A stretch of 64,000 bases of DNA from Patescibacteria group bacterium (GCA_041665845.1 JBAYIC010000006.1:4892-68891), one strand, 5' to 3'. Numbered from the stretch's first letter, positions 2,502-21,006 are shown. Notes: a model not told the origin generated them from the sequence alone. A program made the numbers and translations.

Positions 2502-4010
2502 TTATTCTGCAATATATTTTGGAAGTTCCGGATAAGAGCCACCAAAGCAACCACCACAAATACCGCCACCATAGGTTTCAGCAACAACTTTATAGAGCCC
2601 GGCGGGTTGTAGATAGATAAGCTCATCGGCGCCAATAGTTTGTTTAATAACTTCCAGGCTGCGCTTATAAGCAATCAACTGGGTTCGCGTTTGAAAATCC
2701 ATTCCGTTAGGACAAACATTAACAATGGGTGGAAAGCAAACACAGAAAATTACTTTTTTCGCGCCCGCCTGCTGTAGCATCTCGACAATTATTTTCGCCG
2801 TATGACTACGAACAATTGAATCATCGACAACAATAATTTCCTTACCAACGATAGCCTCTTTTTTTAAATGAAGCTTTTGGCGAATTACTGAAATTCGTTC
2901 TTCAGTAGTAGTAGCTGTAAACGAGCGAGATTGCCCACCCAAGGGTTCGTGCGCTCTTTGAAAAGCTTCTTCGTATAAATCTCCATTATGGACTTGCAGC
3001 CGAGTGCTCAAAACATGAGCGAGACCTTGAGCAAAATGTTTGCCCGAGTCCAAAATTGGAACCACAAGGTCGCCTTTTAATTCCGGGTTTTCTAAAACAA
3101 TCTGCTCTCCAATTTTCCGGCGAAAATCCTCATTATAGATTCCCTTGTTCTTAGAACGAGGATTGGAAAAATAAATGCTTTCAAAGACGCAGAAAAATTC
3201 TTCCGCCCGAGCATAAATCAGGCTTTTAAATTTTTCCGACTTTTTTTCAAAAATCAACATTTCTCCAGGCGCAACGTCTCGTAAAAATTCCGCTCCGACA
3301 AATTGATCAAAAGAAACGGTTTCCGAACAGACCATAAATCCTGAACCGAGTTTAGCGACGCTTAAAGGACGAACGCCATAACGGTCACGGATAGCGAAGA
3401 TTTTATCGCGAGTAATAATAAGTAGAGCATAGGAACAGAAAACTTTATCCAAAGCATAAAGAATCGCGTTCTCAATTTTCTTCTCCCCAGACGATAAAAT
3501 CAGATGGATTAAAATTTCCGTATCCGATGTAGCATCGAACTTACAACCACTTTGTTTAAGTTCAGCTTTCAAATTTTCAACGTTCACCAAAGTACCGTTG
3601 TGAGCAATGGCAAAAGGGCCATATTTAGACTCAGTCACGATTAGGGGTTGGATATTCGCCACCAAACCCGGATCACCTTTAGTCGCATAACGACAATGGG
3701 CGATGGCCATGTTTCCTGGAAGTTCTCGGCGAAAACGTTTTTCATCAAAATCCCGGAACTGAACACTGAAAGGACCAACGCGACGCCTTTCATAGATTTT
3801 CCCTTGACGCTGAGATACAACGCCGCCGCCTTTTTCCCCGCGTTTTTCAATCACAGTAATTAATTGTCCAGCTACCCAAGAGGCGCTTGGTATATTAATT
3901 GCTGCTGCTAAACCACAATTTTCAGGAAATAAATCCCGAAAATTAAAACCTGGCTCTTTACAAAATTTCAATTGCAAAGAACATTGCTTAGAACTAAATT
4001 TTTTTGTCAT
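2502..4010 (-). CDS. purF: amidophosphoribosyltransferase (glutamine PRPP amidotransferase)
   Basis: Ntn Cys in ..ENCGLAAA. Other motifs: HCRYATKG, IAHNGTLVN, DTEILIHL, VVDDSIVRSHT (PRPP loop), C-terminal CGGCFGGSYP. 31 residues precede the catalytic Cys. Confidence 0.85.
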   Translation of the reverse strand: MTKKFSSKQCSLQLKFCKEPGFNFRDLFPENCGLAAAINIPSASWVAGQLITVIEKRGEKGGGVVSQRQGKIYERRRVGPFSVQFRDFDEKRFRRELPGNMAIAHCRYATKGDPGLVANIQPLIVTESKYGPFAIAHNGTLVNVENLKAELKQSGCKFDATSDTEILIHLILSSGEKKIENAILYALDKVFCSYALLIITRDKIFAIRDRYGVRPLSVAKLGSGFMVCSETVSFDQFVGAEFLRDVAPGEMLIFEKKSEKFKSLIYARAEEFFCVFESIYFSNPRSKNKGIYNEDFRRKIGEQIVLENPELKGDLVVPILDSGKHFAQGLAHVLSTRLQVHNGDLYEEAFQRAHEPLGGQSRSFTATTTEERISVIRQKLHLKKEAIVGKEIIVVDDSIVRSHTAKIIVEMLQQAGAKKVIFCVCFPPIVNVCPNGMDFQTRTQLIAYKRSLEVIKQTIGADELIYLQPAGLYKVVAETYGGGICGGCFGGSYPELPKYIAE

Positions 4011-7234: not shown

Positions 7235-7253
7235 ATTATTTATTAACTATATA

Positions 7254-7289
7254 ACAAAAATACCACGAAAAATGGTATTTTGTCTATTG
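7254..7289 (-). repeat. recurrent intergenic hairpin module, copy 1
   Basis: acaaaaataccacgaaaaatggtattttgtctattg, nearly identical to 16314-16349 and 17285-17320. Lies 20 nt upstream of the SGNH gene start. Confidence 0.7.
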
Positions 7290-7308
7290 ACTCACTTCAT
7301 TTATCTAA

Positions 7309-7848
7309 TTAAACTGCTAACTTTATAACTCCATTATATTTCTCACTAAAAATTTTCCCAGAATATTTAGGTAGTAACTTTAAACTCTCTATCGGAGATT
7401 TTTTAGAATATGAAAAGAATATTTTTGTACTAAAATCCTTTTTTAATAAATCATCAGCGAATTGGCATTTATCCAAATCTCCAGAAAAAATAACAAGTTT
7501 TAGGTCTTTTACGGCATCGAATAATTTTTGGCTATATGAATCTATGTTTTTTATTAGAACTACTCTTTCTAACAAGTCTGCGGTATTTTTAATAATATCA
7601 ATAAAATCGTCTTCACTTTCAGAATCAATTATTAAAGCATTATTCAAATCCACACCAACCTGTCTTCTAAATTCTTCCTTGGCTGCCTGATGGGCAGAAA
7701 ATAAAATTACTTTATGTCCATCTTTTAATAGATTGGCTAACAAACAAATGGTAAAAAAAGAGGATCCAGTCTTTTCTGCACCAGAGATTAAAATAGGCAA
7801 ATCATTTAATGAAAAATCAATTTTTTTATTATCTAATAATGCATCCAT
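7309..7848 (-). CDS. hypothetical protein with degenerate P-loop-like segment
   Basis: 179 aa. ILISGAEKTGSSFF resembles a Walker A loop but lacks the GK[ST] lysine. Confidence 0.5.
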   Translation of the reverse strand: MDALLDNKKIDFSLNDLPILISGAEKTGSSFFTICLLANLLKDGHKVILFSAHQAAKEEFRRQVGVDLNNALIIDSESEDDFIDIIKNTADLLERVVLIKNIDSYSQKLFDAVKDLKLVIFSGDLDKCQFADDLLKKDFSTKIFFSYSKKSPIESLKLLPKYSGKIFSEKYNGVIKLAV

Positions 7849-7849
7849 G

Positions 7850-8317
7850 CTATTTAATTACTTTATAAAATACGCTCATATTATTTTCCAATTTACATAA
7901 CTCTTCATAACCCATTCTTTCATAAAAATCGTAAGCGGTATTTTTATATTTTTCAGCACTCCGAATAAATAATTCTGTATAACCAAGTTTTTCGGCTTCT
8001 TGTTCTAAAAATTTTATCATTTGCTTACCAACCCCTTTACCGCGATGGCTATCATCAATGTAAAGTATTTTTATCTCTCCTGGATTATTTGTCGTAGCTA
8101 ATGACAAAATAAATGGCAACGGTTTAGCTAAGCCACCCACCCCGATGACTAGTTCTTGGTCTTTAATAACCCAAAAGTTCATAGAATACTCCGTCTGACC
8201 ATTAATTTCGGAATTTATTCGAGACAAATACTTATCGACTTCCTCTAGCTCAGCCCATTGCTCTAGGATTTTGCGAATCATTTCTAAATCTTTAATTTTT
8301 GGCTTTTCTATTAGCAT
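7850..8317 (-). CDS. GNAT-family N-acetyltransferase
   Basis: 155 aa. Acetyl-CoA motif A: HRGKGVGKQMIKFLEQEA. Confidence 0.8.
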   Translation of the reverse strand: MLIEKPKIKDLEMIRKILEQWAELEEVDKYLSRINSEINGQTEYSMNFWVIKDQELVIGVGGLAKPLPFILSLATTNNPGEIKILYIDDSHRGKGVGKQMIKFLEQEAEKLGYTELFIRSAEKYKNTAYDFYERMGYEELCKLENNMSVFYKVIK

Positions 8318-8326
8318 GTTTCCAAT

Positions 8327-8956
8327 TTACTTTATAAGCACCTGATAATCTTTAAGCATTCCCGATACAATAAGTTGTACCAATTTAGCTGAGTCTTCTC
8401 GAGCAGAATTAAAAATACTCTCATCAGCAGTTACCTGATTATTTGCCCTCTCAATTAAGGTTATAAGAGCAAGGTTATAATCATCATTCTGAGTATTTTT
8501 CAAAAGACCCTTTAATTTCTCAACAATTGATTTGTCCACTGCAAAATCAAGTTCTCCTGAAAGTGATGAATCAAGAATTTCAGCGTGAGGCAAACTTATT
8601 GTCACAAGCTTTTTTGAAGAATCAACGACAATATTTTCAAGACGCATATTTTTCATATCAACACCAACGTCTACTCTGATTAGCCCCATAACGGTAAGCT
8701 TCTTTCCAGTAAATAAATCTGTCCAATCATTATTTTTTGGCGTATCTATTTCTACTTTACTATTTAAAAATACAGTTTTAGTAACTAAAAAGTATTGGTT
8801 TGTAATTCGTTCTAAAATAACTTGAGAATTAACGATTGGTGGTCTGTTTTCAAGATTAGCGGCAACTTTACCTTGATAACGGCCATAAAAAAAGACGGCC
8901 ACAAGAATTAAGAGGGCAGCGACAAAAAAAATTACAATCACTTTAATACGGTTCAT
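8327..8956 (-). CDS. membrane-anchored hypothetical protein (possibly DUF4230-like)
   Basis: 209 aa with an N-terminal TM (VIVIFFVAALLILVAVFFY). The family guess comes from size and architecture only. Confidence 0.45.
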   Translation of the reverse strand: MNRIKVIVIFFVAALLILVAVFFYGRYQGKVAANLENRPPIVNSQVILERITNQYFLVTKTVFLNSKVEIDTPKNNDWTDLFTGKKLTVMGLIRVDVGVDMKNMRLENIVVDSSKKLVTISLPHAEILDSSLSGELDFAVDKSIVEKLKGLLKNTQNDDYNLALITLIERANNQVTADESIFNSAREDSAKLVQLIVSGMLKDYQVLIK

Positions 8957-9037
8957 TTATTTAAGTATTAGTTTACTAGTCTATTATTTATAGCATAAAA
9001 TCATCGAAAAATCGAGACATAAAATATCAACTTTATT

Positions 9038-10009
9038 TTATTGCTTTAATAGCTGTAATACTATTTTAATCATTCTTTCTTTATTTTTAGGATCACTTTC
9101 AGCAATAAATAAAGTTAAGGCCGTTAGCGCGGGTGGTGTAATCCTTGAACTTTCAAGTAAGTCTGCCTTTTTCAAAAACCAAATAAAAGCAAAGGCTCCG
9201 CTTCTCTTGTTTCCATCAATAAAGGGATGATTCTTTACCATAAAATATAATAAATGCGCCGCCTTTTCTTCTACGGTTGGATAGAGCGCCTTCCCATCGA
9301 ATGACTGCATAACATTGCCAACTATTCCCGATACAACATCCTTGCTAATTTCTAGGCCAAAAATATCAGTGGCCTTACCTTTTTTAACCAACTCTTTTTT
9401 AAATTCACCTAAAAATTTATTGAGTTGCTCAGCGGTTAAAATGACTTGTTTTTTAGTTTTTCCACCAGCCACCAAAGCATCCTTATCATAAGCATCAAGC
9501 GATAACCAAGTATCTGCGAAAGCAGTCACAAGCTCTAAAATACTAGCGCTGTCAATATTTGAGTCAACCGGAACTAGTTTTTTGATACTGCCTATTGCTT
9601 CTAAAAATTGTTGATAATGATTCTTAATTAAAACAGGATTAATCGTATAACCCTTAGTAATGTGCTGGCGTAATATTTTGGTCGCCCATTTTCTGAATTC
9701 AATCGCCCTGACCGAATTAGTTCTATAACCAACAGATAAGATTACGTCTAAGCTATAGTAAATTGTGGGTTTATCTGAATTTGCAATATGCATTTTTTGC
9801 ATATTGCTTTTTTGGCTAATTTCGCCATCTTTAAAAATTCTCGAAATATGTCTTGAAATAACAGACTGATCTTTTTCAAATAATTTTACTATGTCAGCTT
9901 GAGTTGCCCATATAGTTTCCTTATTAGAATCAGCTCGCAGTTCAATGGCCCCATTTTTTGCTTGGTACACAGCAATATTAGTGGTTTTTGTTATTTGTTC
10001 TTTTTTCAT
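9038..10009 (-). CDS. Fic/Doc-family protein with N-terminal RhuM-like domain
   Basis: The C-terminal HPFIDGNKRSG matches the Doc-type Fic motif HxFx(D/E)GNKR. The N-terminal AVYQ..G.IELR...ETIWATQADIVKLF...ISRHI..IFKDGEI...SVGYR..S..A..FRKWAT is RhuM-like. Confidence 0.8.
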   Translation of the reverse strand: MKKEQITKTTNIAVYQAKNGAIELRADSNKETIWATQADIVKLFEKDQSVISRHISRIFKDGEISQKSNMQKMHIANSDKPTIYYSLDVILSVGYRTNSVRAIEFRKWATKILRQHITKGYTINPVLIKNHYQQFLEAIGSIKKLVPVDSNIDSASILELVTAFADTWLSLDAYDKDALVAGGKTKKQVILTAEQLNKFLGEFKKELVKKGKATDIFGLEISKDVVSGIVGNVMQSFDGKALYPTVEEKAAHLLYFMVKNHPFIDGNKRSGAFAFIWFLKKADLLESSRITPPALTALTLFIAESDPKNKERMIKIVLQLLKQ

Positions 10010-10084
10010 ATTAATTATTACAACATAAGCAACCTAAGATACGGATAAAATAATTATAAAATTTATGCCCATCTTATTTCCAAA

Positions 10085-10112
10085 TCAAAAAATACATCCG
10101 TTTAGATGTATT
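10085..10112 (-). terminator. intrinsic terminator-like hairpin
   Basis: AATACATC-CGTTTA-GATGTATT with a T-run on the minus strand, downstream of the 10208-10618 gene. Confidence 0.5.
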
Positions 10113-10207
10113 TTTATTTAGCTTGCTTGGAAAAACAGCCTACAAACTTTAATAGCTAATTGTAGTGAAGATTAGAGTACAATTTTAACTTTTTAACATG
10201 GTTCTAT

Positions 10208-10618
10208 TTAGAGTTTTAATATGTTTTGATATTCTATTATTTCTTGATGCAGATTATTTAATTTTTCATTCAAATAGTCTATTTGACCTTTATATGTTAG
10301 CGATGCTTCGTCATCACTGGAAGCAAGCAAATGTTTTTCAGTAGCATTTAGATCTTTTTGATACATATCTATTTCTTTTTCTAACAGTGGGATAATTTCT
10401 TTGCTTTTTCTAATTAAAGCCATTTCGAAACTTTCTTTAAATTCAGATATCGCCTCTAAATCTTCCTCTGATAAATCAGTTCTTTTCATTTCTTCTACCA
10501 GTTTTTCGTATTCAATTTTTTCACCTGGTATTTCTGATCTAAGTTGAGTTATTTTGCTTTCTTTATTTTTTTGTTTTGCTATTGATTCCGCGGCTAGTTG
10601 AATAGAGTCCTCGTTCAT
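10208..10618 (-). CDS. hypothetical coiled-coil protein
   Basis: 136 aa, rich in E, K and L with heptad-like character. No family recognised. Confidence 0.5.
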   Translation of the reverse strand: MNEDSIQLAAESIAKQKNKESKITQLRSEIPGEKIEYEKLVEEMKRTDLSEEDLEAISEFKESFEMALIRKSKEIIPLLEKEIDMYQKDLNATEKHLLASSDDEASLTYKGQIDYLNEKLNNLHQEIIEYQNILKL

Positions 10619-10803
10619 AAAATTATATTTATATTTTTATATCTCGCTATAAATAGCTTAACACTTTTTATTCCCTTGGCATATATACTACAGCATCTTT
10701 CGCGCCGTGGCTACTTCTTTCATCCGAATCGTTTAGAACTTTTGTAACAAAAAAGCCATCCGATAAAATGACTTTTTTGTCTTTTCTTCGAATGGCCAAG
10801 TAA

Positions 10804-11655
10804 CTAAGTAGCTTTATCGAAATTAAAATCATTTTTCGTGAAATTTAGTTCAAGTGCATTTTCGGGGAGATTTTTAGGAAGAAACCCAGCAAAAGAAAGA
10901 ATATCGAGATAGATAAATATCCTATCTATGTCAATCAGAAGCTCTTTATCCGGTGAAAACATCCCAAATTGTTCTCTTGTTTTTAGCGTGTACAGATTAT
11001 GATTATTATCTACCCCGCCCGGCATACAAACATCGAGCACCCTTTGAGTTGTTTTTTCTTTGCTCTTTTTGTCTTGCTCCTCATTAAATCCATCTTCTCG
11101 CAAAAGATTAATAAATTCCTTAAGAGCATCCGCCTGTTTCTTTTGTGGCTCTATATCTTCTTTGAGCCATTTTATTGCTTCCTTTGTCTTTGCAAGAAAG
11201 CCCGATAAAATATATTTGGAACAAGATATTATGTTCTCAAACTCATTTTGTTCAAAAAGAGTGGGCAAAGTAGTTATAAGTTTAACATGGTTTTTGTTTG
11301 GAATAGAATTTATTCCCTTAGCTAGACCCGCCTCCGCGTATCCCGCAAATATCATTGCAATAGTTGCAAAGGAAGATGATTCAAAACATAATTTCATTAT
11401 GCTTGCTTCTCTGAAAAGTTTCATTATGGGCGCCAAGCAGTAATGAGTAAAAATTATTACTGTTGCCCGATCTCTTTTCAAAAGTTCGTTTTCAAAAAAC
11501 TTAACACCATTTTCAAGCGTAGGTATTTCGTTATTAGTGTCGCATAAAATTATGCCGGCTGTTTTGAGTTTCTCCTTGATAAGAAGATCTATCGCTAAAA
11601 AATTTGGCTTTTCTAACGATTTCCTAAGTTCTTCGTTTACTAGTGGTTCTTTCAT
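10804..11655 (-). CDS. hypothetical protein
   Basis: 283-aa ORF with no recognisable motif. The antisense ORFs in the track are shorter shadows of it. Confidence 0.5.
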   Translation of the reverse strand: MKEPLVNEELRKSLEKPNFLAIDLLIKEKLKTAGIILCDTNNEIPTLENGVKFFENELLKRDRATVIIFTHYCLAPIMKLFREASIMKLCFESSSFATIAMIFAGYAEAGLAKGINSIPNKNHVKLITTLPTLFEQNEFENIISCSKYILSGFLAKTKEAIKWLKEDIEPQKKQADALKEFINLLREDGFNEEQDKKSKEKTTQRVLDVCMPGGVDNNHNLYTLKTREQFGMFSPDKELLIDIDRIFIYLDILSFAGFLPKNLPENALELNFTKNDFNFDKAT

Positions 11656-11768
11656 TTTTTTAATTTTTTCTCGGCTTTCAGCCTACGGGTTATGTTTATT
11701 ATATATGTTTACTAAAATTGTTAAGGTAACAAAAAAATATACCATTTGGGTATACCTTTTGTCAATCT

Positions 11769-11799
11769 GCTCGTAATTTGGGATATAGTTGAAACTGTT
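11769..11799 (-). repeat. degenerate copy of the tRNA-3'-end-like repeat
   Basis: gctcg..taatttgggatatagttgaaactgtt aligns with the 14681 and 16350 copies. It is preceded by a hairpin module at 11729-11773. Confidence 0.4.
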
Positions 11800-11816
11800 T
11801 TAAATAAACAAAAAAA

Positions 11817-12614
11817 CTAATACGGTAAACAATATTTTATTAATTTATTTTTATTGATAAATTTAAGAAAAAACCAAGCAATAAAATTATTTCGCAAAAA
11901 AGATGGAATATGCTGAAAAATATCAAATTTTGTCTCAACGGCTGACCATGTGTCAAATCCCGCGTCGACCTTAAATTTGAATAATCCTGAATTATTTTGA
12001 GAGGCTATACCAAAAAAAATATAATTATGAGCCGTTTCTTTTAAGAGACTGTCATATAAAAAATTGTTAGCGCAAATTTTCTTACCCAAATGATTAGATG
12101 ATTGAATAAACATGAGATTGCCTAACATAAGCGCGAAGGAGACTACTCGATCATTCTTCTTCACTATCCAGAGACTACTATAAGATAATCCGCAAACCTT
12201 TTGGAAAAAATCGCGACTAAAACTGAAAGTCTTCAAGATGTCCATGTTTTTTTGATACATCACATAGCAATTATTAATCACATCAATCGAAGGGTTGTTA
12301 ATTATCTCTAAAATAAGTGACTGTTTTTTGGATTTATTTACCGCATTTCTAAAATTCTTGGTATATTTATTATAAGATTCTTGATAGCTTTCTGGATGTT
12401 TTAAAAAAAATAATTTATAACATTCTTTGTTTTTATTATCCTTGTCTAGAAGGTATTGGCATCTTATATTTGAATAATATTTAGTAGACCAAAAAAAAGT
12501 TTTCCCATTAAGCGTAGGGCAATCATTAATGTAGCTAATTTTTGCATAATCCATTAATATCTTGATAAATTCCTTGTTAATAAATGGATCTTGCGGGTTA
12601 TTGAATATAACCAT
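11817..12614 (-). CDS. hypothetical protein, possibly FemAB-like / Acetyltransf_6 (GNAT-fold) family
   Basis: 265 aa. The patterns NFRNAVNKSKKQ and ..GIASQNNSGLFKFKVDAGFD recall FemAB-like peptidyl/aminoacyl transferases. Weak call. Confidence 0.4.
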   Translation of the reverse strand: MVIFNNPQDPFINKEFIKILMDYAKISYINDCPTLNGKTFFWSTKYYSNIRCQYLLDKDNKNKECYKLFFLKHPESYQESYNKYTKNFRNAVNKSKKQSLILEIINNPSIDVINNCYVMYQKNMDILKTFSFSRDFFQKVCGLSYSSLWIVKKNDRVVSFALMLGNLMFIQSSNHLGKKICANNFLYDSLLKETAHNYIFFGIASQNNSGLFKFKVDAGFDTWSAVETKFDIFQHIPSFLRNNFIAWFFLKFINKNKLIKYCLPY

Positions 12615-12724
12615 ATTTTAAGGTTATAATATATTTCGGACGTGGGTGGCTAATTATGGAGAAAATTAGGCATTCATTTTTCAAACTTAATAATCGCAAT
12701 TGTTCTATCATCTTTTGATTTTGT

Positions 12725-13462
12725 TTATTTATTTAAATTAAAAATATTTTGTTTTATCTTTAATTTTTTCTGCAATTTTTTAGCATTGCCCTCTCCACCG
12801 ACATAACCAAACAGCTTTCTCATATTTTTTTCATATCGCGGCTCCTTTAAATCACTCAAACTTTTTAATAATAAATCTATTTCTGCTTGTTTAGGTTGTT
12901 TAAAACCAAGAGACATAAATCTCATACAGGCAAACAAATTCGCAGGATGGCTCAACTGATTTAATTTTAATCTTTTATTTTTTAAATCAGCCAGAGCACC
13001 TGGCAAGGATATTAATTCATCAAACCAATCCTCTCTAAAAATATCCTTTAGAGATATGGCGAATCCATTAATTGTAAAATTGGAGTTTTTTGCTAAATTT
13101 TTTAAAGCACTTTTTTCTTCTGCAATATGTATATCTAAATACAGATAATCATTATAAGCATGGATTGGCTTTGGGATTCGTTTTATTTTTACAACCACTT
13201 CATGTTTTCTTTTTATTTTACCAAAAATAAATCCCCTATGTCTTAAATTTTTTATAAAACCAACTTGGTCACCTATCAATAATATATCAAAATCTCTTTG
13301 GGGCAACTTTTGTTTGAAATATTTATAATAAACAGCATTTCTAATAGCCCCGCCTACTAAATATGCTTTAGTGCTCTTAGGGATAGAAGCAACAACTATT
13401 TTAAAAATTTCATTAGTTTTTTCGTCATGCAGGAAAAGTGGTAATTTTTTATTGATTTGCAT
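12725..13462 (-). CDS. PolyA-polymerase/CCA-adding-enzyme-like nucleotidyltransferase domain protein
   Basis: YLVGGAIRNAV ... RDFDILLIG matches the GGxVRD ... DxD head-domain signature. Start moved to the internal ATG at 13462 (MQINKK); the longer ORF start at 13573 is judged an extension. Confidence 0.55.
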   Translation of the reverse strand: MQINKKLPLFLHDEKTNEIFKIVVASIPKSTKAYLVGGAIRNAVYYKYFKQKLPQRDFDILLIGDQVGFIKNLRHRGFIFGKIKRKHEVVVKIKRIPKPIHAYNDYLYLDIHIAEEKSALKNLAKNSNFTINGFAISLKDIFREDWFDELISLPGALADLKNKRLKLNQLSHPANLFACMRFMSLGFKQPKQAEIDLLLKSLSDLKEPRYEKNMRKLFGYVGGEGNAKKLQKKLKIKQNIFNLNK

Positions 13463-13598
13463 AATAATAGTGATTATATGCGTATTATATCTAAATACGG
13501 AAATATATGGAACCAGCCAGAAATTAGAATAAATTATATTTAATAAATAAGGCTGATTTTCTAATAGCCTCAAATATTTTGATAAGTTTATTTCTTTT

Positions 13599-14063
13599 CT
13601 ATTTTTTTACTGTTTTTAATATTTCTGATAATTCAGTTTTGGTTTTTGTGTCGCCATAAATATAATAAAGCGCGGCAGGTATTGCATCTGCATTTAATTT
13701 CGGGTTTTCAGTATACATAATCTCTCTAAAAGGAAAAACTTTTTCGTCTGCTTCGGGATAGCCAACTGATGGCTTAAACCCGCCAATAATAATTTTTCCA
13801 TTTACACTCGAGACAATGAGCATTTCGTCTTTTTCTTTTACTTCATAATTTTTTGGGTATTTAATAGAAATTGAGTTTGATTTATATTCATTTAGCTGCT
13901 GCTCCTTTAACACCATGGATACTTGATTTTGCTGATTTACTACTTCTGACTTAATCCCAGAACTAGTTTGTTCTGATTGGTTATTTTTAACAATTTTATA
14001 ACTACAGCCACCCAAGGCTAAAACTAATACTAATAACGAAAAAATTTGAATTGTCTTTTTCAT
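13599..14063 (-). CDS. putative lipoprotein
   Basis: Signal peptide with lipobox: MKKTIQIFSLLVLVLALGGC. Confidence 0.65.
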   Translation of the reverse strand: MKKTIQIFSLLVLVLALGGCSYKIVKNNQSEQTSSGIKSEVVNQQNQVSMVLKEQQLNEYKSNSISIKYPKNYEVKEKDEMLIVSSVNGKIIIGGFKPSVGYPEADEKVFPFREIMYTENPKLNADAIPAALYYIYGDTKTKTELSEILKTVKK

Positions 14064-14289
14064 AATTTTATTTTTATACTTTTAAGCTACTCTTAGAATA
14101 TCATAAACACCTAAAATAGCAAAAATGTTTGAACTAAGATATTATAACAAAAACGAACATTTCTGCTCGTTTTTGTATTACTAACTCCGAGTCATGAATA
14201 AAGTCAGAAATAGAGTGGCTAAAATTAGAAGAGAATTTGAGTCTTAATCCTATCTAAATATTTTCTTTATATAGCATTAATTTAATAAT

Positions 14290-14652
14290 TTATAATAAAA
14301 TAAATATTAGACTATATAAGATACCTAACATTAAAAATACATTAATGATAATTGCCGGTATGAATCCTAACCACAATATCCAAGATCGCTCACCTTTTCT
14401 GTATGCAATAATACCTAAAATAAAAGTGGGTATAGAAAAAATAATTTCAACTATTACAATTTTTAATAATCTCGATACACCCGCTATTTTCATGTCGTAT
14501 ATGTCAGAATAAATATTTTGATTTAATGGAATTATTTTTATAATCATGTATGCAATAATTCCTAAAATTAAATAAATAAAAAAACTTGAAACCCACCAAG
14601 TAATTTTTAATTGAGGGGGTTGTTTAAACTTACTTATTGTCTGTTTTTTCAT
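14290..14652 (-). CDS. small multi-pass membrane protein
   Basis: 120 aa with 3-4 hydrophobic segments. Confidence 0.5.
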   Translation of the reverse strand: MKKQTISKFKQPPQLKITWWVSSFFIYLILGIIAYMIIKIIPLNQNIYSDIYDMKIAGVSRLLKIVIVEIIFSIPTFILGIIAYRKGERSWILWLGFIPAIIINVFLMLGILYSLIFILL

Positions 14653-14680
14653 ATTTATATTATAACGCTAAAACTTATTT

Positions 14681-14711
14681 GCTCGGGGACTGGGATAAGA
14701 TTGGAACGGTT
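14681..14711 (-). repeat. tRNA-3'-end-like repeat (copy A)
   Basis: gctcggggactgggataagattggaacggtt differs from 16350-16380 at only 2 positions. The first 9 nt, gctcgggga, are identical to the tRNA-Gln 3' acceptor end. Confidence 0.6.
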
Positions 14712-14756
14712 GCACTTATATAAGTCAATCGTAATAAAAACCATTTTTAAAATTTC

Positions 14757-16130
14757 TTAATTATTTATCCGACCGATTAAATCATTAATCTTTTTCTGAT
14801 AACTTTCAGCTGTCTCCTCTTCCCTTTTCACCTTTTTTAAATCTATAGCGCTAAACTCTCTAAGCACATTAGGGCCGACGATCTTTTCTATTCGGCGCAA
14901 ATAAATAGTCTCTCCTCTGAGATAAGCTCTTTGCATATCTTGCCATTCCTTATTCCTAGCCTCATCAAGACTAATATTTTCCTGCCCCGTCCTTGCTTGA
15001 GATAATTTTTCTAAAATTGCATCTAGCACTCTTATTTCATTATTATATCCATTCTTTTCCCGGAGCATCTCTTGATTTCTAACGTCAAACATTTCAGAAT
15101 TAAATTTTGACTCTATCTTTTGCTTTTCTTCGGCGGCAAGCTCTTCAAAGCTCAGTTTTTCCATTTCAAATTTTTGAATAAAGACATTCTCTTGAAAAGT
15201 TTTATACTTATCTGGTAGATACCGTTCTAAATTAGCCAGTGCTAAGGCTTTTTCTTTCTCTACTAACTCATCATTAAGCTTGGCAATTTCTGGATCAGCT
15301 TTAATAACATCAGAAATGATAGATTCTTTATTATTATTGAATATTTCACCGGCCATTTTCTCTGTTACCGCCTCATTAAGACTCCTGAGGAGGTCTCTAT
15401 TTTTCGCCTCACCTTCTTTAGCTTTCCAGACTGAACCAAAACCGCTTTTAGACAATCGGTTTTCACCCATATGCTTCCGCCCTTCTCGGTTATCTACAGC
15501 ACCGGCAAAATGCAACTCTTCATGGATAATAACTTTTGCGGAGTTCGATTTAACTTTAATATCATCCGAATCGGTATTATATACACCTGAATTTAAATAA
15601 TCTCCAGTATAACTTATTTTTTCTTCAGGTAGACCGCTTATCTCCACGCCCAAACTAGCTGCATGATCCTTAATTTTCTTATAGGAAACGGCCGCCAATA
15701 CTTTTAACTCGCGATACTTCAAAATTTCTTTCTCCTGCATCAACGACTCATAGTCTATCGATTTAGACGGCTCAGCATCTAACCACGGTTTTTTAATATC
15801 CACATATTCTTTATGCTTGTCCTGAAGCGCTTTTTCAGAATCTGTGATCAAGACTATCTTCTCGCCATCTAATTTCTTGATTTCGTTAATCGCCTCTTTC
15901 TTCTCATAAAAGAGAGCGGACGAGTGATCATCTTTTGAATCCATTATTAAATCTAAGGCTTCTGTAGTGTCTAGCCGACTCTCATCTTTAAGTTTATTGA
16001 GACTGTTGAGATAATTCTCAATTTTAACCGGCAAACTTTCAGTTATTTCATTTTTTTCGCCAGAAAACTTCGTCACTATCGGTTTTTCCTTACCATCTTT
16101 AAAAAAATTTTGGCTTTTTTCTGAAGTCAT
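14757..16130 (-). CDS. hypothetical protein with HExxH zinc-metallopeptidase-like motif
   Basis: VIIHEELHFAG contains HEELH. The rest is E/K-rich. Start set at the internal ATG 16130 (MTSEKSQ), which removes the overlap with the upstream small ORF. Confidence 0.55.
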   Translation of the reverse strand: MTSEKSQNFFKDGKEKPIVTKFSGEKNEITESLPVKIENYLNSLNKLKDESRLDTTEALDLIMDSKDDHSSALFYEKKEAINEIKKLDGEKIVLITDSEKALQDKHKEYVDIKKPWLDAEPSKSIDYESLMQEKEILKYRELKVLAAVSYKKIKDHAASLGVEISGLPEEKISYTGDYLNSGVYNTDSDDIKVKSNSAKVIIHEELHFAGAVDNREGRKHMGENRLSKSGFGSVWKAKEGEAKNRDLLRSLNEAVTEKMAGEIFNNNKESIISDVIKADPEIAKLNDELVEKEKALALANLERYLPDKYKTFQENVFIQKFEMEKLSFEELAAEEKQKIESKFNSEMFDVRNQEMLREKNGYNNEIRVLDAILEKLSQARTGQENISLDEARNKEWQDMQRAYLRGETIYLRRIEKIVGPNVLREFSAIDLKKVKREEETAESYQKKINDLIGRINN

Positions 16131-16140
16131 AAAAATAATA

Positions 16141-16308
16141 TCAACTTTTAGAGAGCAGCTCTCGTAAATCGTTAATCTTTTTTTGTTCAATCTTTTTTAG
16201 ATAAGAGATAGCTATTTCCCTCTGTCGAAAACCTAAATCCGCGACCTCCTCACGAGCTTTTTGATATATATCATCTATCTCTTTATTTTTATCTAATTCC
16301 TTGGTCAT
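16141..16308 (-). CDS. small hypothetical protein
   Basis: 55 codons from MTKELDKNKEIDD..., immediately upstream of the HExxH ORF. Confidence 0.35.
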   Translation of the reverse strand: MTKELDKNKEIDDIYQKAREEVADLGFRQREIAISYLKKIEQKKINDLRELLSKS

Positions 16309-16313
16309 ATAAA

Positions 16314-16349
16314 ACAAAAATACCACGGCAAGTGGTGTTTTGTCTATTG
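16314..16349 (-). repeat. recurrent intergenic hairpin module, copy 2
   Basis: acaaaaataccacggcaagtggtgttttgtctattg. The hairpin is retained with altered stem and loop bases. Confidence 0.65.
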
Positions 16350-16380
16350 GCTCGGGGACTGGGATATAGTTGGAACGGTT
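16350..16380 (-). repeat. tRNA-3'-end-like repeat (copy B)
   Basis: gctcggggactgggatatagttggaacggtt. Confidence 0.6.
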
Positions 16381-16397
16381 TTTTATAAAAACACCTA

Positions 16398-17261
16398 TTA
16401 ATTACCCCTAATTAAAGACCCTGTATTAAAATTAAATATGTAAGCCTCTTTGTTTATTAATAAACTAATAGTTTCCGTATTTTTATAATTTGTTTTTACA
16501 TCAAATACAACATCATACGGGTATTCTATATTATTTTTCACATTAATTATTTCCTCATCTTTTTTAAATGTTATTCCGTCCGTAAATGTTAGGCACGAGG
16601 TCAATTTGCATATATCATACGGGACATAACCCTTGTCCCAACAGGATTTTTCCATGTGACTAAATGACAAAAGATTATTTGTTAGTTTCTTTGTTTTTAA
16701 ATTATAGTTGGCAATACTAGCATCATTTACACAGTGATCATATTCTCCGAAACTTATTAAAAGATTATCTTTATCGACAAATTCAAGTAGTTCTGCGTTG
16801 TTCATTATTTTTAGATATTCAGTCCCATCAGAATAAAGAGCGCAGGTTGGAAATAATAGATTATCTATTATGTCTATATTTTCACCATCTTCTTTGATTA
16901 AATCGCACAAAGAGCCATTTCTGCCACAACCTTCATTGCTACTTTTTTTAATTGCATACTTTTCGCCAGTAAAAATATTAATGGTATTGTCCGTATATGT
17001 ATAGTCACCACTTTTCATATAGCTGGCATAAAAATCTTTAATTTTATCTTCACATGAATTATCGCCATCTTTATCAACTTTCTTATTTTTAGCCTCCTCT
17101 TTTTGAAAATCTGGTATAGTACCCGAAGAATTAGATAAGCTATTATCTGAGTTGGAATAATTTGTTACTTGAATTTCTCTGTTATGCTTTTCTTTAAGAA
17201 TATAAATAGCTCCAATCAAAATAATTACGCAAATTGATAAAAGCAATATAGTTTTTTTCAT
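16398..17261 (-). CDS. secreted or membrane-anchored Cys-containing hypothetical protein
   Basis: Start set at the ATG at 17261 (MKKTILLLSICVIILIGAIYIL). The longer ORF start at 17375 would run through the repeat region. Confidence 0.55.
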   Translation of the reverse strand: MKKTILLLSICVIILIGAIYILKEKHNREIQVTNYSNSDNSLSNSSGTIPDFQKEEAKNKKVDKDGDNSCEDKIKDFYASYMKSGDYTYTDNTINIFTGEKYAIKKSSNEGCGRNGSLCDLIKEDGENIDIIDNLLFPTCALYSDGTEYLKIMNNAELLEFVDKDNLLISFGEYDHCVNDASIANYNLKTKKLTNNLLSFSHMEKSCWDKGYVPYDICKLTSCLTFTDGITFKKDEEIINVKNNIEYPYDVVFDVKTNYKNTETISLLINKEAYIFNFNTGSLIRGN

Positions 17262-17284
17262 AATTGAATATTTAATAGTATATA

Positions 17285-17320
17285 ACAAAAATACCACGAA
17301 AATGGTATTCTTGTCTATTT
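17285..17320 (-). repeat. recurrent intergenic hairpin module, copy 3
   Basis: acaaaaataccacgaaaatggtattcttgtctattt, 24 nt upstream of the 17261 start. Confidence 0.7.
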
Positions 17321-17337
17321 GCTCGGGGATAGGGATT
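17318..17337 (-). repeat. perfect 20-nt direct repeat of the tRNA-Gln 3' end (att-like)
   Basis: tttgctcggggatagggatt is identical to 17536-17555, which covers part of the T-loop, the 3' T-stem, the 3' acceptor strand and 4 nt of flank of the tRNA-Gln gene. Confidence 0.8.
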
Positions 17338-17474
17338 ATCGCGCTCGCTTGGCGCCGGAAATGCGCCAAACTCACTTGTCCAGACCAGCCGCTAAGCGCT
17401 ACGCTTGCTCGCGCTTATCGTCGCTCGATTATTCGAATTCGCTTCCGCTCATTCTCATGTCTCGCTCGCTGCTT
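17338..17474. other. GC-rich insert of unknown nature
   Basis: About 57% G+C by hand count, in AT-rich surroundings. Contains a perfect hairpin TTGGCGC-CGGAAAT-GCGCCAA (17349-17369) and repeated GCTCGC motifs. Bounded by inverted copies of tRNA T-arm sequence. Confidence 0.5.
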
Positions 17475-17489
17475 GTTCGAATCCCTATC
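17475..17489 (+). repeat. inverted 15-nt copy of the tRNA-Gln T-arm
   Basis: gttcgaatccctatc is the reverse complement of 17547-17561 within tRNA-Gln. It also forms a 10-bp inverted repeat with 17328-17337. Confidence 0.7.
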
Positions 17490-17497
17490 GTTTCCAA

Positions 17498-17529
17498 ACA
17501 AAGAAAAAAGAAGGAATTAATTCCTTCTT
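17498..17529 (-). terminator. intrinsic terminator downstream of tRNA-Gln
   Basis: Perfect palindrome AAGAAGGAATT/AATTCCTTCTT followed by TTTTTCTTTG on the minus strand. Confidence 0.65.
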
Positions 17530-17539
17530 TTTTCTTTTG

Positions 17540-17610
17540 CTCGGGGATAGGGATTCGAACCCCAATAGCCAGGACCAAAACCTGGAGTCCTACCGTTAGA
17601 CGATCCCCGA
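17540..17610 (-). tRNA. tRNA-Gln (anticodon UUG)
   Basis: Hand-folded cloverleaf: acceptor TCGGGGA/TCCCCGA with the U1:A72 pair typical of tRNA-Gln, anticodon arm CCAGG-TTTTGGT-CCTGG, T-arm TGGGG-TTCGAAT-CCCTA, discriminator G. CCA is not encoded. Confidence 0.9.
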
Positions 17611-20851: not shown

Positions 20852-20923
20852 GCGGGTGTTGTATAATGGTTATTACGTCAGCTTCCCAAGCTGAAGAAGG
20901 CGGTTCGATTCCGCTCACCCGCT
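20852..20923 (+). tRNA. tRNA-Gly (anticodon CCC)
   Basis: Acceptor GCGGGTG/CACCCGC, anticodon arm TCAGC-TTCCCAA-GCTGA, T-arm GGCGG-TTCGATT-CCGCT. Confidence 0.9.
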
Positions 20924-20930
20924 CTAATAG

Positions 20931-21006
20931 GCCGAGATAGCTCAGCTGGTAGAGCGACGGTATCGTAAACCGTAGGTCGTGGGTTCGATCCCCATTCTCG
21001 GCTCCA
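20931..21006 (+). tRNA. tRNA-Thr (anticodon CGU), CCA encoded
   Basis: Acceptor GCCGAGA/TCTCGGC, D-arm GCTC-AGCTGGT-AGAGC, anticodon arm ACGGT-ATCGTAA-ACCGT, T-arm GTGGG-TTCGATC-CCCAT, then T-CCA. Confidence 0.9.

Follow-up and report, generated by a model that had tools for sequence, protein, structure and literature searches.

In the staphylococcal cassette chromosome (SCC), a recombinase encoded by one cassette suffices to move cassettes that have none (PMC11470126). Elements without recombination genes of their own, flanked by attachment (att) sites, build up in tandem with an integrase-bearing element, which can mobilise them (PMC5704250). In the tycheposons of Prochlorococcus, integration at a tRNA pushes older elements outward and leaves partial tRNAs scattered behind, a minority of these elements using large serine recombinases (LSRs; bioRxiv 10.1101/2020.12.28.424599). 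Here, we describe a locus with features of all these systems in a 64,000-nt stretch of a Patescibacteria group bacterium (GCA_041665845.1 JBAYIC010000006.1:4892-68891), hereafter called the window. The region from 17.6 to approximately 7.25 kb, on the minus strand, is probably a hypervariable array of small gene cassettes that arose in a Candidatus Falkowbacteria genome through successive site-specific recombination events at the 3' end of tRNA-Gln.

Bacteria of the candidate phyla radiation (CPR), or Patescibacteria, have tiny genomes with few recognised mobile elements, and their acquisition of accessory genes is poorly understood. For these bacteria, tRNA-Gln (both isoacceptors) would be a defined hotspot for the modular swapping of dozens of small, unrelated genes, including those of orphan secreted proteins.

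Synteny, site family and modular exchange at tRNA-Gln

Synteny was compared across 80 loci, obtained by an FtsX search of GTDB species representatives and mostly labelled Candidatus Falkowbacteria or Patescibacteria; a further sample comprised 97 Joint Genome Institute (JGI) metagenome stretches carrying the site motif described below (loci bear L numbers). FtsX is encoded just upstream of tRNA-Gln, and the tRNA follows ftsX in 70 of the 80 loci. Genes upstream of tRNA-Gln were kept in 67 to 80 of the 80 loci and synteny was lost directly past the tRNA; in none of them did a window gene from between 8.3 and 17.3 kb have a homolog in the 10 kb that follow the tRNA. The gene pair at 7309-8317 of the window, encoding proteins of 155 and 179 aa, stands directly after tRNA-Gln in L187. 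GC-content was 0.31 in the island versus 0.35-0.36 in its flanks.

The point of variation could be located from two loci, L182 and L187, whose sequences are 99.76% identical along 6,526 bp from a point inside the tRNA T-arm onward. Ahead of it, L187 carries tRNA-Gln and L182 a different cassette ending in GGTTCGAACATCGTCCGCGACCCCGAGCA. Since the two are nearly identical yet differ at the tRNA, they represent an insertion polymorphism exactly at the T-arm/acceptor site. The hypervariable island appears to begin exactly at tRNA-Gln. A preliminary description of this DNA had proposed repeated integration beside the tRNA, to be checked by windowed GC-content and by comparison of the locus in relatives; both comparisons, and the strains that differ by an insert at this very point, bear the proposal out.

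Contigs of metagenome-assembled genomes (MAGs) ended within 500 nt past tRNA-Gln in 21 of the 70 loci (e.g., L009, L015, L027, L033, L053, L054 and L064), which suggests strain variation or repeats within populations. The hotspot would account for many Falkowbacteria MAG contigs breaking right after tRNA-Gln.

The T-arm/acceptor 3' part of the tRNA, GGTTCGAA followed by TCCCTATCCC and CGAGCA, is most readily read as the primary attachment site, of B type. The last 16 nt of tRNA-Gln with 4 nt of its trailer were said to recur exactly at 17318-17337, and they do (chance expectation 0.01; the observed count was reached in 0 of 100 shuffles). Two diverged 31-mers, at 16350-16380 and 14681-14711, also proved genuine, with a chance expectation of 0; they differ at 3 of 31 positions and not at 2, as had been stated. 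The degenerate copy reported at 11769-11799 also emerged from pattern, repeat and profile searches, the long profile giving E = 8e-12. As previously noted, all four window copies (17318, 16350, 14681 and 11769) share the orientation of tRNA-Gln. The tRNA lies on the minus strand, as does every open reading frame (ORF) between approximately 4 and 20 kb. The copies at 17318, 16350 and 11769 continue into a module of the form A(A/G)AT(A/T)GACAA, hairpin and T-run, which gives an extended repeat of 58-65 nt in total length (58 nt at 79% for D4, 65 nt at 72% for D2). The repeats had been taken to delimit gene sets; the sites do lie between ORF units, but the first supposed cassette turned out to be a non-coding structured element, here named U.

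The copies had been interpreted as an att footprint of integration. This holds for their role as recombination sites and fails for the diverged copies as decayed tRNA ends. The latter share the formula GTTCCAA, 5 extra nt, TCCCAGTCCC and CGAGCA, and are better described, judging from their sequences, as a conserved site family with an exact 5-nt insertion. A variant, GTTCCAACTATATCCCAGTC(C/T)CCGAGC, was found in six loci whose tRNA-Gln sequences differ (L007, L016, L051, L072, L043 and L021), in each case downstream of tRNA-Gln and on its strand. Because the variant is kept in genomes with other tRNA-Gln sequences, the copies represent a site family rather than decay. Their interpretation as pseudo-tRNA 3' halves with a T-arm was rejected, since CCCAG finds no pairing partner in the bases ahead of the loop.

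A 27-nt degenerate pattern, GTTCCAAYYWTATCCCANNYYYYSAGC, was used for the metagenome search. It occurred in the 97 JGI stretches, all of low GC-content, in arrays of up to 8 copies. Among the 39 sequences with both tRNA-Gln and the motif, 74 of 75 copies were co-oriented with the tRNA and all 75 lay downstream of it. Occurrence of the repeats at unrelated, non-tRNA loci had been named as evidence that would speak against integration at the tRNA; the site motif was found 0 times in 703 kb upstream of tRNA-Gln and 10 times in 387 kb downstream. Exact matches were confined to a single locus in each of eight contigs of 0.33-0.98 Mb, and an 809-kb contig had two site loci, both of them tRNA-Gln loci. 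Both tRNA-Gln isoacceptor genes are targets, TTG beside ftsX and CTG elsewhere. Arrays at tRNA-Gln(CTG) were observed in L156 (tRNA on the reverse complement, 3920-3991) and in L158 with L186 (377-391 kb of the 809-kb contig), the latter giving two arrays in one genome. The right half of the sites tracks the host tRNA acceptor, being of CGAGC or C(G)CAGC type. A scan of IMG/VR for the motif core returned 45 chance-like matches, none reaching into the ..CCGAGC part.

Units were defined from 194 profile matches, which yielded 95 inter-site units, with an ORF threshold of at least 60 aa. Their median length was 794 nt and their coding density 82%; 73 of the 95 contained one ORF and 15 contained two. 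ORFs ran with the site in 114 cases and against it in 7, and the gap from stop codon to site had a median of 20 nt. The 103 cassette proteins included NUDIX, GNAT and GrpB proteins, methyltransferases, radical SAM enzymes, transporters and many orphans. By this anatomy, the units seem to act as cassettes of a single gene, not as stumps left by large elements.

Single units recurred at different array positions beside unrelated neighbours. A cassette of approximately 350 nt was found in five contexts at 84-90% identity, with homology that sets in within or beyond the ..CGAGCA of the left site and stops in the right site past GTTCCAAC.ATATCCCAaact. In other pairs of shared cassettes, the homology likewise breaks inside the site. 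At one site in L171, a three-way junction was identified: the left arm and upstream cassette match L211 (95% identity), and the right arm and downstream cassette match L156 (100% over 821 bp). The switch point lies within CCGAGCAA, where the partners share a stretch of approximately 8-9 nt, while the parental left arms (GTTCGAACATCGTCCGCGACC versus GTTCTAATTGTATCCCACCCT) and right flanks are dissimilar. This pattern argues for exchange of cassettes as modules at the sites, and for exchange at a short central core without extended homology, within which a 2-bp crossover is not resolvable.

Several further observations concern the surroundings of the sites. The array of L176, L183 and L133 has no tRNA-Gln in the 9.6 kb upstream and is neither a counter-example nor a confirmation. 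These 9.6 kb in L133, as well as positions 11824-16150 of L014, contain ORFs resembling type I restriction-modification or defence genes, as judged by N-termini and gene order alone. Such ORFs separate the cassette arrays from tRNA-Gln or from the edge of the contig, and the hotspot may also gather large islands. Blocks of the form CCTTGATTTTATTGG...GGTTCGAATCC lie 100-170 nt past tRNA-Gln in L011, L058, L062, L072, L130 and L187 and constitute an extra T-loop-like sequence without the acceptor part. Where a site is expected in L152 with L167 (at about 1890 in the oriented sequence), GGTTCCAACCCTAGGGTTGG joins the start of a left arm to a perfect palindrome.

Recombinase, mechanism and alternatives

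Absence of an integrase from the window had been noted earlier, and the searches agree: tblastn with three LSRs found none in the 64 kb, a Pfam scan of the proteins of 9-17.3 kb found no integrase, and a single XerD probe, run by tblastn over 1.6 Mb of fetched loci including the window, found no tyrosine recombinase, which is a weak negative. The wider search for integrases was positive in relatives, at this very tRNA. LSRs, recognised by their Resolvase, Recombinase and Zn_ribbon domains, abut the tRNA-Gln 3' end in L012, L014, L017, L039, L004, L020, L156 and L189. In L065, a 6.2-kb insert has at its far end a 21-nt copy of the tRNA, which an LSR adjoins. The reading frames of the LSRs extend antisense into the 3' end of tRNA-Gln.

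The LSR elements at tRNA-Gln also encode a rolling-circle Rep, to which L012 adds a Zot/pI-like ATPase and a Cep-like coat protein. By this gene content they resemble inoviruses and can be read as inovirus-like prophages of CPR bacteria. Such elements were mapped to 11005-18065 of L012, 6708-9684 of L014 and 13362-17296 of L065, and also occur in L156. The sole inverted site copy found (L065, 11092-11126) adjoins the tRNA after a minus-strand gene; it lies within the 6.2-kb LSR element, in which the order of genes is the reverse of that in L156, and may result from LSR-mediated inversion.

The block GTTC[GC]AA stood 10 nt from CGAGC in 73 tRNA sequences, practically all of them identifiable as tRNA-Gln 3' ends, and 15 nt from it in 154 cassette sites, a count partly imposed by the metagenome pattern. 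The inserted 5 nt were CTATA or TCTTA, and CATCG in an independent 15-nt variant. In LSR systems, the motif bound by the zinc-ribbon domain (ZD) lies 5 bp nearer the crossover in attB than in attP (Rutherford et al., PMC3783163). The same 5-bp displacement is present in the left half of the sites; the right half has no shift, so that it concerns one half only. Together with the LSRs at the same tRNA, the displaced left block makes an LSR the likely enzyme class. The attB/attP geometry would put the centre, 10 or 15 nt away from the distal block, at the CG of CCCCGAGC, and it is there that the junctions map. We infer that the enzyme is an LSR supplied in trans.

The right side of the sites corresponds to the native tRNA trailer. 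In insert-free genomes (L021, L043, L066, L071 and L073), tRNA-Gln is followed by A(G)ATTGACAA, a hairpin and a T-run, and a module of this native type follows the window copies at 17318, 16350, 11769 and 7293. It has the form TTGACA/TAGACA-18-TGnTAT(A/T)TT, is promoter-like with an extended -10, and lies 8-80 nt ahead of the next start codon. With such a module at four boundaries, each cassette appears to bring or inherit a promoter/terminator arm. The -35-like block stands at an equal offset after tRNAs and after cassette sites.

Each cassette boundary is a hybrid site of three parts. The left arm travels with the upstream cassette and consists of GTTCCAA, exactly 5 nt and TCCCAGTCCC, mimicking the T-loop and T-stem. 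The right arm, tRNA-trailer-like and of the form TTGACA-18-TGnTATATT with a hairpin, travels with the downstream cassette. Between them, a short exchange core lies inside CCGAGCA(A), in the acceptor 3' strand. A mechanism can be proposed from this anatomy: an LSR acting in trans would recombine a B-type site in the tRNA with a P-type site formed by the cassette left arm. Incoming DNA would bring a matching acceptor 3' strand, leaving the tRNA whole and displacing older cassettes outward. A more ambitious proposal, which we make only tentatively, is that the locus is an integron-like but separately evolved gene-capture platform, in which promoter-bearing cassettes circularise and are captured by an LSR at tRNA-Gln via the 5-bp-offset tRNA mimic. 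Element U would be a dedicated non-coding part of it, for example a processed RNA, or else a secondary or decoy attB by which the tRNA is spared, and the platform would serve Falkowbacteria and perhaps other CPR bacteria.

Several results weigh against a cassette array driven by an LSR, beginning with the lack of an LSR in the window itself. No recombinase family was among the top 25 of the 59 families listed for the 103 cassette proteins. At the ftsX locus, the motif was carried by approximately 6 of the 42 species representatives with at least 3 kb downstream. Independent support for the 15-nt spacing comes only from the GTDB matches and the CATCG variant, and a 5-bp shift in the right arm was looked for and not found. 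The right arms of the LSR/rolling-circle elements (ATCGATGAAC.. or CAACGTAGAT..) differ from those of the cassettes. Array sites look P-type on the left and B-type on the right, and strict attP x attB rules do not obviously allow such sites to target the tRNA again. In the window, units 3 and 4, with four and six ORFs, have no detectable internal sites, and this part of the array may represent stumps of larger elements or be partly decayed.

It is rather unlikely that all units are decayed stumps of successive large LSR/rolling-circle elements or islands, each of which left an attR, lost its integrase and replication genes and had no mobility at the cassette level. Complete LSR/Rep elements of 6-10 kb are indeed found at the site in relatives, with motif copies behind them (L156, L189 and L065), units 3 and 4 of the window are multi-gene, and tycheposon islands decay in just this way (bioRxiv 10.1101/2020.12.28.424599). 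However, random decay would not be expected to leave 73 of 95 units with a single ORF, ORF orientations biased 114:7 or stop codons 20 nt from the site; site-bounded cassettes of 350-820 bp recur in unrelated arrays, one at 100% identity; and the window yielded no pseudogene fragments of LSR or Rep genes. Shuffling of cassettes by homologous recombination or gene conversion between the repeats of approximately 70 nt, with no dedicated recombinase, is more doubtful still. The partners at the three-way junction share too short a stretch (approximately 8-9 nt) between dissimilar arms, and the presence of the site on more than 100 unrelated genes, the exact 5-nt offset and the restriction to tRNA-Gln would be left unexplained. 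On the other side, repeats of 35-75 nt at 70-90% identity are enough for occasional RecA-dependent exchange, the window has no recombinase, and a single type accounts for all right arms.

The array recalls a classical integron, or an integrase-less cluster of attC sites (CALIN), in its mostly single, co-oriented ORFs, in the site that immediately follows the stop codon and in a cargo that includes NUDIX, GNAT and methyltransferase genes; on this reading, the repeats would be attC sites used by the tyrosine recombinase IntI. Neither intI nor attI lies beside the array, the neighbours being ftsE, ftsX and the tRNA in all loci, and the XerD probe was empty in the 1.6 Mb of loci, a weak test. The aligned sites, read directly, are GTTCCAA..TATCCCA..CCGAGCA, with no inverted RYYYAAC...GTTRRRY cores and no attC hairpin but a likeness to a tRNA 3' end, and each unit has its own promoter-like arm, all of which makes an integron very improbable. 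Finally, there is hardly any likelihood that the repeats are plain terminators, promoters or tRNA-like 3'-UTR processing signals without a role in mobility. Their intergenic position and a right arm that is a sigma-70-type promoter with an extended -10 at four boundaries, plus hairpin and T-run, are what such signals would show, but the left arm cannot form a T-arm and has no covarying partner strand, the family is restricted to the region downstream of tRNA-Gln, and strain-level insertions and recombinant junctions fall exactly at the sites. A regulatory role of the right arm is compatible with site-specific recombination and does not replace it.

Element U and the units of the window

The features of the locus are listed in Table 1. 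Site d is the likely distal end of the array.

Table 1. Positions and properties of the features identified at the tRNA-Gln locus of the window.
Feature	Position	Strand	Remarks
tRNA-Gln(UUG)	17539..17610	minus	ARAGORN; Rfam tRNA 55.5 bits
tRNA trailer: A-tract, perfect hairpin, T-tract; terminator-like	17498..17538	minus	belongs to U, not the ancestral trailer
Element U, GC-rich, structured, ~173 nt, 55% GC	17320..17492	minus	covariance model 48.5 bits, E=4.8e-10
Exact 20-nt copy of tRNA-Gln 3' end and trailer (AATCCCTATCCCCGAGCAAA)	17318..17337	minus	B-type spacing; 3' end of element U
Right-arm module 1: TAGACA-18 nt (hairpin)-TGGTATTTT	17279..17317	minus	extended -10; promoter- and terminator-like
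Cassette 1: single 287-aa ORF, N-terminal hydrophobic segment, 9 Cys	16398..17261	minus	no Pfam family
Site a, P-type: GTTCCAA + CTATA + TCCCAGTCCC + CGAGC	16348..16382	minus	E=3e-09; E=2.8e-19 with right arm
Right-arm module 2: TAGACA-18-TGGTATTTT with hairpin	16308..16347	minus	
Cassette 2: small ORF 16141-16309 and 457-aa HExxH (HEELH) protein 14757-16130	14757..16309	minus	no Pfam family
Site b, P-type: GTTCCAA + TCTTA + TCCCAGTCCC + CGAGCA	14678..14712	minus	E=3.7e-08; right arm without hairpin
Unit 3: four co-oriented ORFs 14290-14652, 13599-14063, 12725-13462, 11817-12614	11817..14652	minus	
Site c, degenerate P-type: GTTTCAA + CTATA + TCCCAAATTA + CGAGCA	11767..11802	minus	E=2.6e-06
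Right-arm module 3: TTGACA-18-TGGTATATT with hairpin	11731..11766	minus	promoter match 11/12; near-identical to native L043 trailer
Unit 4: six co-oriented ORFs	7309..11655	minus	includes RhuM/Fic 9038-10009; 155 aa 7850-8317, 179 aa 7309-7848
Site d, right-half remnant (GAGTCAATAGACAAAATACC..hairpin)	7249..7293	minus	E=0.004; close likeness to 17279-17323

Element U begins with an inverted, antisense partial copy of the tRNA T-arm (17476-17490), followed by approximately 140 nt of 55% GC and then by the sense copy of the tRNA-Gln 3' end. The trailer hairpin was assigned to U because it precedes every copy of U in relatives, whereas genomes without U have another trailer with TTGACAA. U follows tRNA-Gln or a cassette site in many relatives, and its terminal copy is always that of the host's own tRNA, with which it covaries in 9 genomes. 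It is tandemly repeated in L016, where a cassette is inserted behind two U units, and flanks a 6-kb island in L006.

A covariance model detected 29 copies of U, including the one in the window. Carriers include L006, L007, L013, L016, L025, L045, L143, L178, L214 and L218, with a length of approximately 165-175 nt and five helices. In the alignment, which was fitted to the model and thus favours the structure, 88.5% of cells were paired, compensatory changes occurred in 35 of 48 pairs, and double-change cells numbered 261, compared with 80 ± 8.5 in shuffles (0 of 500 reached the observed value) and at most 49 in slid-register controls. An independent MAFFT/RNAalifold run also gave compensatory changes in the central hairpin and the closing helix. 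Folding was favoured on the minus strand (z = -3.5) and not on the plus strand (z = 0.1), and G-U pairs fit the tRNA strand only. No Rfam family matched U at the gathering threshold, and a permissive search of the window and four U-bearing loci gave only sub-threshold matches to terminator hairpins. U can be considered a candidate for a previously undescribed, strongly covarying structured RNA (or sense-strand DNA); absent from Rfam, it is a product of this locus in its own right.

The 3' arm of U has the 10-nt, B-type spacing, and U may serve as a B-type pseudo-site or secondary target. Two other roles were rejected. As a leftover of an LSR C-terminus, the GC-rich segment should match LSR tails, but tblastn matches of these cover only the antisense tRNA and trailer, and the segment covaries like an RNA. 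As an origin or packaging signal of the LSR/rolling-circle elements, U was represented there only by a mini version of approximately 50 nt, in L065.

The ORF of cassette 1 had no homolog in any fetched locus. In unit 3, the product of ORF 12725-13462 is nucleotidyltransferase-like, with a weak match to the PolyA_pol head domain; the gene recurs at 84% aa identity at other array positions in L130 (830-1510) and L203 (4467-5147), the L130 copy standing right after tRNA-Gln. ORF 9038-10009 of unit 4 (minus strand) combines RhuM (PF13310) and Fic/DOC (PF02661), a typical mobile-element or toxin-type cargo. The first unit past tRNA-Gln in L130 (300-600) has a strong promoter, TTGACA-17-TATTAT, with approximately 250 nt to a terminator, but lacks ORFs reaching 60 aa; it may represent a further non-coding cassette.

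A tRNA-Gly(CCC)-tRNA-Thr(CGT) pair is located at 20852-21006 of the window on the plus strand, 3.2 kb from tRNA-Gln. The pair is present in nearly all relatives and showed no sign of use as an insertion site.

Comparison with described systems

A literature search on serine recombinases at tRNAs in Patescibacteria and on integrons or gene cassettes in CPR bacteria found no prior description. If driven by an LSR, the locus would be a serine-recombinase counterpart of the integron, and its natural attB/attP pairs would display the 5-bp half-site rule in sequence alone, which could aid the mining of integrases for genome engineering.

The closest mechanistic analogue appears to be SCC. SCC/SCCmec elements, inserted at rlmH by the Ccr LSRs, also form tandem, co-oriented arrays of accessory cassettes at the 3' end of a conserved gene, with short att repeats and the same inferred recombinase class. 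In contrast, the tRNA-Gln array is not at rlmH, and its units are of approximately 0.8 kb and mostly single-gene, compared with kilobases to tens of kilobases in SCC. It further differs in the 5-nt P/B offset and tRNA-arm mimicry of its sites, in its CPR hosts, and in the absence of its putative recombinase from the window.

Tycheposons share with the locus the repeated, tRNA-anchored integration that leads to a hypervariable island with partial tRNA copies. However, they are multi-gene elements with their own integrase, mostly a tyrosine recombinase, and with primase/helicase genes and plain partial-tRNA repeats, whereas the array described here has conserved 5-nt-insertion variant repeats and single-gene units without an integrase. 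Of the integrase and replication module that characterise a tycheposon, both are missing from the window units, and the elements of relatives have an LSR and a rolling-circle Rep. The att-flanked elements without recombination genes mentioned above are kilobase-scale, depend on tyrosine integrases and occupy fda or other tRNA sites in Firmicutes; unlike the tRNA-Gln units, they have neither single-gene regularity nor a tRNA-mimic P-type arm.

In anatomy, the array seems closest to integrons, with the defining integron features absent. Chromosomal integrons and CALINs similarly form long, co-oriented arrays of single ORFs with the site past the stop codon, site halves that come from different cassettes and a diverse cargo of small enzymes. 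The tRNA-Gln array has no IntI, attI or attC signature; it uses a tRNA as its platform, its cassettes have their own promoter-like arm, unlike the promoterless cassettes of integrons, and the enzyme is likely a serine recombinase. Serial integration at a tRNA with outward displacement is already established from other bacteria, and what this locus would add to it is a single-gene array at tRNA-Gln of CPR bacteria, sites with an LSR-type 5-nt offset and a structured RNA candidate.

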